Source: an uncultured Clostridium sp.
GTDB lineage: Bacteria; Bacillota; Clostridia; Oscillospirales; Acutalibacteraceae
Reading direction: 5' to 3'
Assembly: GCA_964448835.1 (NCBI GenBank)
Contig: CAYUXK010000004.1
Coordinates: 409 to 64,408, forward strand
DNA length: 64,000 nucleotides
Below the pieces are notes generated by a model. That model was not told where the DNA came from. It ran no database searches and was given only the letters and a program-made list of their open reading frames with translations. The first letter of the stretch is position 1. Each line of letters opens with the position of its first letter. Made by a program: the position numbers and the translations under genes. Below, piece by piece: positions 51,852 through 54,290 of the stretch.

Positions 51852-54290
51852 TTAAGGCTCATAACTGAAGGTGAAGCAATGTGAACGGATATCACAATTC
51901 ATTATCGAAGCGCGGAAAGCGTTGCCGCGCATGGTTTTGTTGCCGACGCGAATGGTATTCACATACCCGGGTGTTGACCCCGAGGGTGAAGCGTTGGTAA
52001 GTATTTCAAGCCATTCGGCAGGATTGTCGGAGAGCACTATGGAGCTGTCATACGCAAGAATTCTTCTCTTTAATTCATCGGCTGAAATTGATGGCGGCGT
52101 ATTAATGGAGACGACTTCGGGGCTGCTCACTCCTCCCGCCAGATACGGATATTTATTGCTTCCCCAAACACTTTCAGCGCTTGCCGTTTTGCCCGCGGCG
52201 CTCGCAAAGTAGCAGGTAAAAGCCGCAGAGCCGTTATAACAGACATATTTGGGGGAGGGGGTATCGCCGGGCAGGGTGATGCCCAGGTAGCTTAACGCGG
52301 CGTAATATACATTGGTGTCAAGATAATCATATGTAGAATTATAAGCATGACGGTCTGAGGCAACTTTAAAATTATAGTATTTTGCATATGTGTAGACCGC
52401 GCATATCTGCGCCTTGAGCGCCTCATAAGGAGCACTCGCGCCGATTTCGCGGACGGTAGTGCGGCAGAGGTACTCAACAAGCTCAATCGGAACGCCCCCG
52501 TATGTGACGGTTGCGGGCGGATTAGTATCTGTTTCAAGAGATGTGCCGGGATAATAGTGCTTAATAATCTGCTCGTAGGTCTTACCGCTGTTTGCCATCG
52601 CCTTTGCGCCCTCCTGGCTCATGCCGACGCCGTGACCGAAGCCGTAAGTTGTAAAGGTAAAGGTGCCGCTCACGGGCTTACCCGACGAGGTGGTGCCTTT
52701 TTCTGTGACTTTAACCGTGGTGGGCTTGGTAGTTGCCGGCTTAGTCGTGACCGGCTTTGCCGATGTCGGCTTCAAAATTAAGGGCCACTTTAACGAGGCT
52801 GCCGTTGTTGAAATCGCGGAGGTTACAGCCTGCTTCGTGGTGGTCGCCACCGATTTTTTGGTTGTTGCCGCTGATTTTGTGGTTGTTATTGACGATTTTG
52901 TGGTTGAGGCGGCAGTTTGCCGCGGCGTTACCGTGGTGTTAACGGGGGAGGATTCATTCTTCTGCGGGCCGACGCCCTGCATAACCGCGGTCATTACTGT
53001 ACGCGGCGCGGTGGTTATTTCAAGTGAGGACAGCGCCGAGCTTGCCGGGATTGCAATCATATCCGGGCTCTCAAGCATACTGCCGCCGTAGAGCGGGCTG
53101 TAATAATTAAGGTTCGCTTCCGCTTCAACCGCCAAATCGGCGGCCATGGGCGGCTCATTATATGAGGAATTCAGCGAATCCGCGGGAGAATCATCCGAAA
53201 GGTAATAGGCGATACCTACGCACGCGGCAATAGCGGCAAATAGGCACGCTATAATCACAACAAGACCGCGCACGGGTATGCGCTTAACGAGCGGAACGCT
53301 CACCTTTGGCGTGCTTTTCTCCGGGTTCACAAGCCCCTCGGGAGTGGCGGTGAATTCATCGAGCATATTGAGCAGCTTACCTATGGCGGCAAGCACAAGC
53401 GCCTTGGGGTCATCTCCCGGCTCGGAATAAACCTTAACCACACGGGCACGCATGGAGTTCGCGATGCTCACCACGGTGTAGGTGCTCGAGTCCTCTTCAT
53501 CGGTGCAGATATCCGAAACGGCGATGCCGACATCGGCGTGCGTATTCTCTTTTGCGGCTTTAGCAGAAACCGCTATGTAACTGTTGATATTCTCCTCGCC
53601 GTCAGGCGGCGGGGGCGAAACGTCAACAACAAAAACCTTATCAAAGCCATCCGAAAGGCGCAGACACTTTTGAACCAGCGCGGCGCAGCCGACATTTGAC
53701 AGGGCAATGTAAGAGCCGTTATCGGCAAGTGAGTCAACGGTTTGCTTAACCGACTGCTCAATAGCGGAGCGGGCAGTGATTCTTTTTGAAATCGCCGAAA
53801 GCTCGCCGAGGAAGGGCGACAGCTCACTCACGAGCATATAATCAAGCCTCGCGCAGTCGAGCGGCAGCATAATAATGCAGCGCGCGCCTTTTTTGAAAGC
53901 GAAGCCGGAATACAGACCGTCGGAGGAAATGAACACGCGCGCCTTTTCGGGCATAGCCACCTGCAAATCATATTCGCGCTTTGAGGGGAAGTCAATGCCC
54001 TCAACGGCATCGGCAACAACGCGGCTCTTGACCGCGCGAAGCGAGAGCGTTTTCATGAGCGTGAGCTTGAGTGCCGTGAATTGCCCGGGCTCGGCTGCGA
54101 TAATTGCTGTGTGAACGCTTTTAAGTTGGGAATTAAGGCATTCAATGAGCTCCTTCTGGCTGTTGAAGTCAGCGGAAAGCTGGGCATCCGAAAAATAATC
54201 AGATACCACATCACCTATTTGCTCCCTAGCCCTGCGGACTCCTGATGAGCCCTTGGTTGCAAGGGTCAATAAGCAAACCTTTGAAGCCAC
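51852..54290 (-). CDS. Fusion protein: degenerate CinA-like N-terminus, TM helix, Ser/Thr-rich stalk, circularly permuted SpoIID/LytB domain
   Basis: N-terminus aligns by eye with the neighbouring CinA (KKGARCIIMLP vs KKGGKCVIMLP); GFGHGVGMSQEGA...HYYPG precedes EYL..REI..ALKAQ..YTYA. Confidence 0.75.
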   Translation of the reverse strand: MASKVCLLTLATKGSSGVRRAREQIGDVVSDYFSDAQLSADFNSQKELIECLNSQLKSVHTAIIAAEPGQFTALKLTLMKTLSLRAVKSRVVADAVEGIDFPSKREYDLQVAMPEKARVFISSDGLYSGFAFKKGARCIIMLPLDCARLDYMLVSELSPFLGELSAISKRITARSAIEQSVKQTVDSLADNGSYIALSNVGCAALVQKCLRLSDGFDKVFVVDVSPPPPDGEENINSYIAVSAKAAKENTHADVGIAVSDICTDEEDSSTYTVVSIANSMRARVVKVYSEPGDDPKALVLAAIGKLLNMLDEFTATPEGLVNPEKSTPKVSVPLVKRIPVRGLVVIIACLFAAIAACVGIAYYLSDDSPADSLNSSYNEPPMAADLAVEAEANLNYYSPLYGGSMLESPDMIAIPASSALSSLEITTAPRTVMTAVMQGVGPQKNESSPVNTTVTPRQTAASTTKSSITTTKSAATTKKSVATTTKQAVTSAISTTAASLKWPLILKPTSAKPVTTKPATTKPTTVKVTEKGTTSSGKPVSGTFTFTTYGFGHGVGMSQEGAKAMANSGKTYEQIIKHYYPGTSLETDTNPPATVTYGGVPIELVEYLCRTTVREIGASAPYEALKAQICAVYTYAKYYNFKVASDRHAYNSTYDYLDTNVYYAALSYLGITLPGDTPSPKYVCYNGSAAFTCYFASAAGKTASAESVWGSNKYPYLAGGVSSPEVVSINTPPSISADELKRRILAYDSSIVLSDNPAEWLEILTNASPSGSTPGYVNTIRVGNKTMRGNAFRASIMNCDIRSHCFTFSYEP

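Follow-up and report, generated by a model that had tools for sequence, protein, structure and literature searches.

A bitopic membrane protein joins a degenerate CinA homologue to a circularly permuted SpoIID domain in an uncultured Clostridium sp.

RESULTS

A CinA-derived domain, a transmembrane helix, and a SpoIID domain in one protein

We analyzed a gene in a 64,000-nucleotide (nt) stretch of DNA, hereafter the window, from an uncultured Clostridium sp. of the family Acutalibacteraceae, order Oscillospirales (GenBank assembly GCA_964448835.1, contig CAYUXK010000004.1, positions 409 to 64,408). The gene occupies positions 51852..54290 of the window on the minus strand, as do all window features with coordinates given below, and forms one uninterrupted frame of 812 codons with a GTG start. 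Its product is a bitopic membrane protein of 812 amino acids (aa) that comprises, in this order, a degenerate CinA domain (termed the dead CinA domain here), a single transmembrane (TM) helix, a Ser/Thr-rich linker, and a circularly permuted SpoIID domain. The GTG is preceded by AAGGCGG at a distance of 8 nt and by the stop codon of an upstream sortase gene at 20 nt. Since the fusion protein and its orthologues share an N terminus of the form M(A/V)SK(I/V)C-LTL, the start was taken to be called correctly, and the base composition of the gene is in no way unusual. An earlier note, made by a model from the sequence alone, had proposed such a fusion, with no mention of the permutation, and did not recognize its architecture among described proteins. 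Pfam and the searchable literature gave no description of it either: in the literature, we found no account of the dead-CinA/SpoIID architecture, of the combination of SpoIID, CinA, and sortase, or of a circular permutation of SpoIID. Relatives of the dead CinA domain carry the database name "hypothetical protein," and the domain has no Pfam family.

The N-terminal domain is a degenerate CinA homologue

The first ~300 aa had been aligned by eye with the CinA encoded 3 kb away, and this resemblance was borne out by BLASTP, in which aa 1 to 330 matched that CinA (positions 57178-58410) with 31% identity over 98 aa (E = 1e-10) in the stretch aligned by eye. A Pfam scan of the N terminus yielded no match, including to PF00994, PF02464, and PF18146, the NCBIfam CinA model NF001813 gave 17 bits against a cutoff of 379 (E = 0.002), and phmmer with the single N-terminal sequence returned no match in the PDB. 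Because such single-sequence searches were indecisive, profiles and structure prediction were needed. Relatives of the domain were collected by an exhaustive phmmer search over 1.84 billion representatives, which found 189 (clusters at 50% identity). When a 40-sequence alignment of the N-domain was compared with the neighboring CinA by hhalign, the match was significant (98.2%, E = 3.4e-14, 254 columns) and spanned CinA residues 46 to 390, with the KH domain skipped. The top PDB match of the N-domain profile was 6mr3, a CinA, and genuine CinA was recovered by the profile at 9.4e-6 in a search of 5.8 billion proteins. Furthermore, a hidden Markov model of the dead-domain family matched the genuine CinA of ~30 related loci at 1e-11 to 1e-19.

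Structure prediction gave the same picture. The AlphaFold2 model of the N-domain, built from 52 sequences, had a mean pLDDT of 88.8, and the first 23 Foldseek matches of this model in the PDB were all CinA, the best being full-length Thermus thermophilus CinA (E = 2.9e-12). The COG1058 (MoCF_biosynth)-like half, aa 1-165 (53796..54290), is supported by hhalign, alignments, the model, and the archaeal, COG1058-only structure 3kbq (TM-score of 0.71 on the target); the half resembling PncC, the nicotinamide mononucleotide (NMN) deamidase, aa 173-315 (53346..53774), is supported by alignments and by the PncC-only structures 5vu3, 5kvk, and 2a9s (TM-scores of 0.6-0.7). According to hhalign and Foldseek, both folds are present in the CinA order, COG1058 followed by PncC, as in T. 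thermophilus CinA (PDB 4CT8/4UUX). Several CinA motif positions are also kept, namely, the K/R after the DD motif, VP, xxG(L/F), LP, and G...S/T. Thus, aa 1 to ~320 constitute a degenerate yet true CinA homologue.

Loss of the catalytic residues and retained selection

In T. thermophilus CinA, the ADP-ribose pyrophosphatase uses Glu12, Asp45, and Asp76 to bind Mg2+ and Glu156 to bind the ribose, all of which are absolutely conserved, and the NMN deamidase employs Lys301 as the general base together with Thr340 (PMC4246079). We placed this numbering on the neighboring CinA by motif equivalence, and the two numberings happen to match. The earlier note had read the GTE, GDN, and GGLGPTxDD motifs as gone and AESCTGG as changed; in our alignments they appear in the fusion protein as ATK, F-NS, AEPGQFT, and (L)SNVGCA, respectively, and the equivalents of Glu12, Asp45, Asp75/76, and Glu156 are K, N, F/T, and R. 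The middle domain, also reported as deleted, is indeed absent: the alignments lack the KH domain (~75 residues), and PF18146 found no match.

A residue census was then taken over 155 members of the dead-domain family aligned with six genuine CinAs of the same loci. The Glu12 position is variable with a family consensus of Q (Lys in the fusion protein), and the Asp45 position holds Thr, Ser, or Gly (Asn in the fusion protein). Tyr or Phe takes the place of Asp75 in all family members, Asn or Leu that of Asp76, and Arg or Lys that of Glu156 (R148 in the fusion protein). The segment with the catalytic Lys301 is deleted in 151/155 members, which leaves a gap of 12-15 residues, the AESCTGG loop is unconserved, and two C-terminal, phosphate-binding Arg residues are missing. 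Of the NMN deamidase site, to which the AESCTGG loop and phosphate-binding Arg/Tyr residues also belong, only the Thr340 position is kept; 119 of the 155 have Ser there and 26 have Thr (Ser259 in the fusion protein). Gly255 of the fusion protein is conserved as well. The family has near-invariant residues of its own and a conserved change of its own, from NGTAPG to DGLxSGF.

Since the catalytic residues of both CinA activities are lost, the domain is predicted to be a pseudoenzyme, catalytically dead by the known CinA mechanisms. With the Mg2+/ADP-ribose and NMN contacts replaced or deleted, canonical nucleotide binding is unlikely as well. The ratio of nonsynonymous to synonymous substitution rates (dN/dS) was 0.15-0.22 for the dead domain in unsaturated pairs versus 0.04-0.14 for the SpoIID part, which points to purifying selection on a domain that is no mere relic.

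Topology and linker

Hydropathy scans revealed a single TM helix at aa 343-361 (LVVIIACLFAAIAACVGIA; 53208..53264), lying within the interval of ~53200-53273 named in the earlier note. KRIPVRG flanks the helix on its N-terminal side and the acidic YYLSDDSPAD on its C-terminal side, and there is no signal peptide. The positive-inside rule is an established basis for membrane topology; given the basic N-side flank and the lack of a signal peptide, it predicts an N-in, C-out orientation, in which the CinA-like domain should be cytoplasmic and everything after the helix outside. The previous reading of a cytoplasmic CinA-derived pseudoenzyme with SpoIID outside fits this topology as well as the lost catalytic residues. 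The Ser/Thr-rich stalk described there is a Ser/Thr/Pro/Lys-rich, low-complexity linker of ~180 aa by its composition (aa 362-540; 52671..53207), which contains a short 21-nt repeat at 52837-52906 and varies in length and sequence among orthologues. A conserved (L/F)VNP motif immediately before the helix was considered as a C-terminal sortase sorting signal and rejected, because the basic residues come before the helix, not after it, and the motif itself would face the cytoplasm.

The SpoIID domain is circularly permuted

The C-terminal part, aa 541-812 (51855..52670), is the SpoIID/LytB-like domain recognized in the earlier note. It scored 115.2 bits with TIGR02669, above the cutoff of 83.3, and 24.4 bits with PF08486 (cutoff 23; E = 4.6e-5), and the profiles matched it in a swapped order. 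The end of TIGR02669 (positions 144-269) matches aa 461-586, the profile start matches from aa 603 onward, and PF08486, an N-terminal SpoIID model, matches late, at aa 603-661. Likewise, phmmer against Clostridioides difficile SpoIID (5i1t/5txu) aligned the domain in two pieces with their order exchanged: residues 71-263 of the excised domain to SpoIID 64-267, and residues 11-54 (full-length aa 542-585) to SpoIID 283-326, its C terminus. The transposed segment, aa 543-590 (TFTFTTYGFGHGVGMSQ...HYYPGTSL; 52521..52664), with its GHGVGMSQ...HYYPG stretch, is the canonical SpoIID C terminus and here opens the domain. In the AlphaFold2 model of the permuted domain (pLDDT of 94.8 and predicted TM-score [pTM] of 0.90), the new termini are placed between two beta-strands, of which TFTFTTY opens the domain and CFTFSY closes it, and SpoIID 5i1t was the sole strong Foldseek match in the PDB (E = 2.9e-7).

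Glu615 (REIG; codon at 52446..52448) aligns with position 101 of 5txu, and Glu101 is the catalytic Glu of C. difficile SpoIID (PMC6221140). Together with G-HGVG-SQ, Glu615 is invariant in 28 permuted domains. In Bacillus subtilis SpoIID, the catalytic glutamate is E88. The fusion domain has the fold, the catalytic Glu, and the GHGVGMSQ, EALKAQ, and YFASxGGKT motifs in common with SpoIID, the engulfment lytic transglycosylase of Bacillus and Clostridioides (PDB 4RWR, 5I1T, and 5TXU), as well as a membrane-anchored extracytoplasmic location, and it is apparently a competent lytic transglycosylase. It differs from SpoIID in that ~45 residues of C-terminal type come first, in having no Zn site of the C. 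difficile type, in the 340-aa cytoplasmic domain and 180-aa stalk that stand in place of a short N-terminal anchor, and in being encoded with sortases, not with sporulation genes. On the SpoIID equivalog TIGR02870 the fusion protein reached 98.6 bits versus a cutoff of 234.75. The genome has, at other places, genes for a canonical SpoIID (342 aa, 191 bits on TIGR02669) and for SpoIIP. The fusion protein is therefore not the engulfment enzyme of the SpoIIDMP machine; the gene is a paralogue of the ordinary sporulation SpoIID gene, no replacement for it.

Permuted SpoIID domains occur widely across Oscillospirales (Ruminococcus and Acutalibacteraceae), with or without the dead-CinA domain. Stand-alone permuted SpoIIDs of 328-468 aa occur at loci L032, L034, L035, L037, L040, L041, and L044 (Acutalibacteraceae and Clostridia metagenome-assembled genomes [MAGs]) with no cinA or sortase gene within 7 kb upstream, so that the permuted domain is not restricted to the cluster described below. 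A few members of the dead-domain family (P0028, P0033, P0072, and L048) carry SpoIID in canonical order behind the dead-CinA domain.

Distribution of the dead CinA domain

The N-domain was found in 23/24 genomes of the genus, 19 of them with frames of ~700-900 aa and 4 with shorter or contig-truncated frames, and in many metagenome proteins, so the fusion is not confined to one assembly. Thus, neither of the outcomes that the earlier note had named as refuting its reading, an N terminus with no significant profile or structural match to CinA or a fusion present in this assembly only, was observed. None of the 16 other families first sampled carries the domain. In an order-wide sample it was present in 5/301 genomes and 4/153 genera, which characterizes it as a narrow, lineage-specific invention. 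The relatives occur in gut and rumen MAGs assigned to Acutalibacteraceae, Oscillospiraceae, and Ruminococcus.

A conserved cinA-sortase-SpoIID cluster

The fusion gene is the last of six in the order iscS, thiI, cinA, srtS, srtL, and the fusion gene, all on the minus strand and separated by 20-35 nt. At the head of the cluster stand the gene of an iscS-type cysteine desulfurase (59641-60798) and thiI (58446-59621). Next comes a genuine cinA (57178..58410; MoCF_biosynth, CinA_KH, and CinA by Pfam) with all motifs intact in alignments. The genome encodes no other true CinA, and the dead domain derives from a CinA of this type. Two class-B-type sortase genes follow: srtS (56171..57145; Pfam), with an N-terminal TM helix by hydropathy, and srtL (54311..56146), 20 nt upstream of the fusion gene, with a TM helix and the catalytic motif TLSTC. 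SrtL has an acidic, Pro/Ser-rich cytoplasmic tail of ~300 aa where fused relatives have a CinA domain. A juxtamembrane motif, GDxxGExxRK-TM, is common to SrtL, CinA-sortase fusions, and Ruminococcus sortases. The motif and the tail placement that SrtL shares with the CinA-sortase fusions suggest that it may descend from a CinA-TM-sortase protein.

Gene maps were drawn for ~60 loci. All congeneric loci and many MAGs show this gene order, with the fusion gene last, and at ~45 loci (Acutalibacteraceae, Ruminococcus, and Oscillospiraceae MAGs) a SpoIID membrane protein gene lies directly downstream of 1-4 class-B-type sortase genes and cinA or pncC. The iscS/thiI head is also found in the same order at L076, L109, and L111. 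Thus, the cinA-sortase-SpoIID cluster is conserved in Oscillospirales and undescribed. In Ruminococcus (L045-L057), including R. flavefaciens, it consists of a PncC-only gene, 2-4 sortase genes, and a TM-anchored permuted SpoIID.

A sigma-70-like promoter-like site lies upstream of iscS (60856-60827), a second promoter-like site, with an extended -10, just downstream of the fusion gene (51815-51787), and a strong terminator-like hairpin ~275 nt past the fusion gene (51577-51550). The second site and the hairpin bracket a small open reading frame (ORF) in 51546-51815.

Fused, short, and variant relatives

Single ORFs in four MAGs fuse CinA to wall enzymes. L062:770-4159 (1129 aa) and L076:3452-7708 (1418 aa) encode MoCF_biosynth, CinA_KH, CinA, Sortase, and SpoIID by Pfam; L094:4412-7777 (1121 aa) encodes MoCF_biosynth, Sortase, and a sub-threshold SpoIID, the KH domain not being detected by Pfam; and L088:663-3674 (1003 aa) is a CinA-SpoIID fusion identified by BLASTP only, in which no sortase was detected. 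All four contain a TM helix and a SpoIID in canonical order, and the sortases of L062, L076, and L094 retain His and TLSTC. The fused CinA parts retain KH with eroded motifs (GGLGMTPAD, GESGTNG, and AEGGTSG), and in the genomes with single-ORF fusions an intact CinA is additionally encoded on a different contig.

In another genus, the dead CinA domain stands alone as a tail-anchored protein of 353-363 aa in the same operon slot, with a dockerin gene next to it and no SpoIID. At two such loci, L109:8001-9964 and L111:8001-10021, the short dead-CinA gene is followed by one for a secreted protein with a dockerin domain, the cluster lacks SpoIID, and a protein of 252-274 aa with no Pfam match is encoded between the two sortases. 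L014:1592-4861 (genome G006) carries a 371-aa short and a 694-aa long form in tandem, and the N-domain of the long form is cut to its first ~170 residues. In P0051 (566 aa, metagenome), dead-CinA and the TM helix are followed by hydrophobic segments and a match to the inositol-monophosphatase family (E = 4.5e-6), another output domain on the same dead-CinA cytoplasmic module.

A FastTree phylogeny rooted on genuine CinAs, in which long-branch effects are possible, placed the KH-containing fused forms basally and grouped the dead-domain family as a single clade (99% support). P0112, P0136, and P0144, which branch most basally within this clade, still score for CinA_KH. Because truncated metagenome ORFs partly confound the short and long labels in the tree, only the 353-363-aa clade, whose context was checked, was taken as truly short. 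These sequences appear to form a natural series from intact CinA through KH-containing degenerate fusions to the KH-less dead domain.

The Oscillospirales CinA-TM-sortase B-SpoIID chains and clusters resemble the fusion locus in their three components, in the gene order after iscS-thiI, and in juxtamembrane organization, and in the tree the CinA domains of the single chains are intermediate between true CinA and the dead-domain family. The fusion locus differs from the single chains in having separate genes, in the loss of the KH and sortase domains, in the permuted SpoIID, and in the intact cinA at the cluster head. Compared with CinA itself, the fusion protein lacks KH, the Mg2+/ADP-ribose ligands, the Lys301 segment, and AESCTGG; it is membrane anchored, joined to a wall hydrolase, and below the CinA thresholds of Pfam and NCBIfam. 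What is new in it, then, is that KH is gone, there is no sortase domain, SpoIID is permuted, and a live cinA is kept, all built from known folds.

DISCUSSION

We consider it reasonably probable that the fusion protein is a dead-CinA scaffold or docking pseudoenzyme tethered to a wall-remodeling SpoIID domain that works with the co-encoded sortases, a function deduced from architecture and context. The SpoIID domain, kept off the membrane by the stalk, would cut glycan strands locally, and this local cutting would help the two class-B sortases of the cluster in their wall-anchoring or assembly reactions. At the cytoplasmic face, the dead CinA domain would serve as a scaffold or dimerization module, whose partner may be a second copy of itself, the live CinA, whose gene lies three genes upstream, or the acidic tail of SrtL, and this pairing would assemble or localize the complex. 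CinA forms dimers through its COG1058 and PncC domains (PMC4246079), which makes each of these pairings plausible. Since single CinA-TM-sortase-SpoIID chains exist and the lone dead CinA is tail anchored, the physical coupling of a CinA-type domain with wall enzymes looks like a selected feature. We infer that the wall-cutting domain serves the sortase module, not engulfment. A dead copy kept under selection beside a live enzyme is familiar from pseudokinases and other pseudoenzyme paralogues, and a cytoplasmic module linked to an extracellular peptidoglycan hydrolase from FtsEX-type control, which differs in that there is here no ATPase and no known conformational relay; both are analogies only, drawn from general knowledge.

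Several observations weigh against a scaffold working with the sortases. SpoIID enzymes require glycan strands stripped by an amidase (PMC6221140), but the cluster encodes none. The ancestral active-site cleft is where the conserved residues of the dead domain are found, which would fit a ligand-binding role too. Ruminococcus clusters do without any membrane-tethered CinA-like domain, and such a domain is therefore not obligatory for the module. Finally, the position of cinA next to these genes may in part stem from old synteny after thiI and not from function.

A ligand sensor, in line with the nucleotide or protein sensor suggested in the earlier note, would account for the conserved cleft (K75, F130, R148, and S259 in the fusion protein): after remodeling, it might bind NMN, ADP-ribose, NAD, or another anionic metabolite, and its occupancy, signaled across the membrane (e.g., via oligomerization), would switch SpoIID. 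The most conserved positions of the family are ancestral active-site motifs with altered chemistry (Asp75 to Tyr/Phe, Glu156 to Arg/Lys, NGTAPG to DGLxSGF, and Thr340 to Ser), the CinA fold is confidently retained in AlphaFold2 and Foldseek, and the domain is under purifying selection. Yet none of the Mg2+ ligands is left, the phosphate-binding Arg residues and the Lys base have been lost along with a 12-15-residue active-site segment, one TM helix with a ~180-aa, probably flexible linker makes a poor allosteric conduit, and the short forms lack an extracellular output domain altogether, so we think sensing quite unlikely. The same short forms bear on the idea that the N-domain is an inert leftover of a CinA-sortase-SpoIID fusion, now a cytoplasmic plug or an aid to membrane insertion, because a useless remnant would not persist alone, tail anchored, in the same operon in other genera. 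The domain does evolve faster than SpoIID (omega of 0.15-0.35 versus 0.04-0.17), its identity is only 25-38% within the genus, the long form of L014 has it truncated to ~170 aa, and the Ruminococcus homologues manage without it. With omega well under 1, invariant residues of the family's own, and a high-confidence AlphaFold2 model, however, an inert remnant seems to us improbable.

A lineage-specific engulfment or cortex-remodeling SpoIID, linked to cinA and the sortases merely by position, would suit a SpoIID-type domain in an organism that is apparently a spore former, with SpoIID and SpoIIP present, and a GerA gene lies near one short-form locus. We hold out little prospect for such a sporulation enzyme, since the canonical 342-aa SpoIID (191 bits) and SpoIIP are encoded elsewhere, the TIGR02870 score (98.6 versus 234.75) is far under the equivalog cutoff, and the gene follows a sortase gene at a distance of 20 nt in a cluster that begins with the housekeeping genes iscS and thiI and has a sigma-70-like promoter; moreover, the single-ORF fusions with CinA and sortase in four MAGs (with the sortase of L088 not detected) argue for a functional, not a positional link. 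An artifact, be it a missed stop, a frameshift, a chimeric assembly, or a chance Rossmann-like fold similarity, has a next-to-zero probability in our estimation: although the assembly is fragmented (118 contigs) and the N terminus has no Pfam match, the domain occurs in 23/24 congeneric genomes, in many MAGs of different studies, and in 189 protein clusters, and CinA homology is supported significantly, and in agreement with one another, by sequence, profile, and structure comparisons. A NAD-related defense role was dropped, because libraries of defense systems and phages gave no match for four cluster proteins.

To our knowledge, the physiological role of CinA, a very widespread bacterial protein, is unsettled, and its NMN deamidase/ADP-ribose pyrophosphatase enzymology does not explain its induction in competence and damage. 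A bolder proposal than the scaffold, which we consider unlikely as things stand, is that CinA-family domains are cytoplasmic subunits of a trans-envelope sortase/lytic-transglycosylase machine in gut Clostridia, with the dead copy as a membrane dock that recruits or regulates live CinA and with NAD/ADP-ribose turnover or a "competence/damage" role coupled to wall opening and protein anchoring. If true, NAD/ADP-ribose turnover would be tied to local wall opening and the anchoring of surface proteins. The dead-CinA family is a previously unmodeled domain family that offers an enzyme-to-pseudoenzyme series, and the natural circular permutation of the SpoIID fold is useful for understanding the architecture of this enzyme. 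The repeated tethering of CinA-type domains to the membrane, sortases, and SpoIID provides a concrete, testable link between CinA and envelope assembly in abundant gut and rumen Clostridia.

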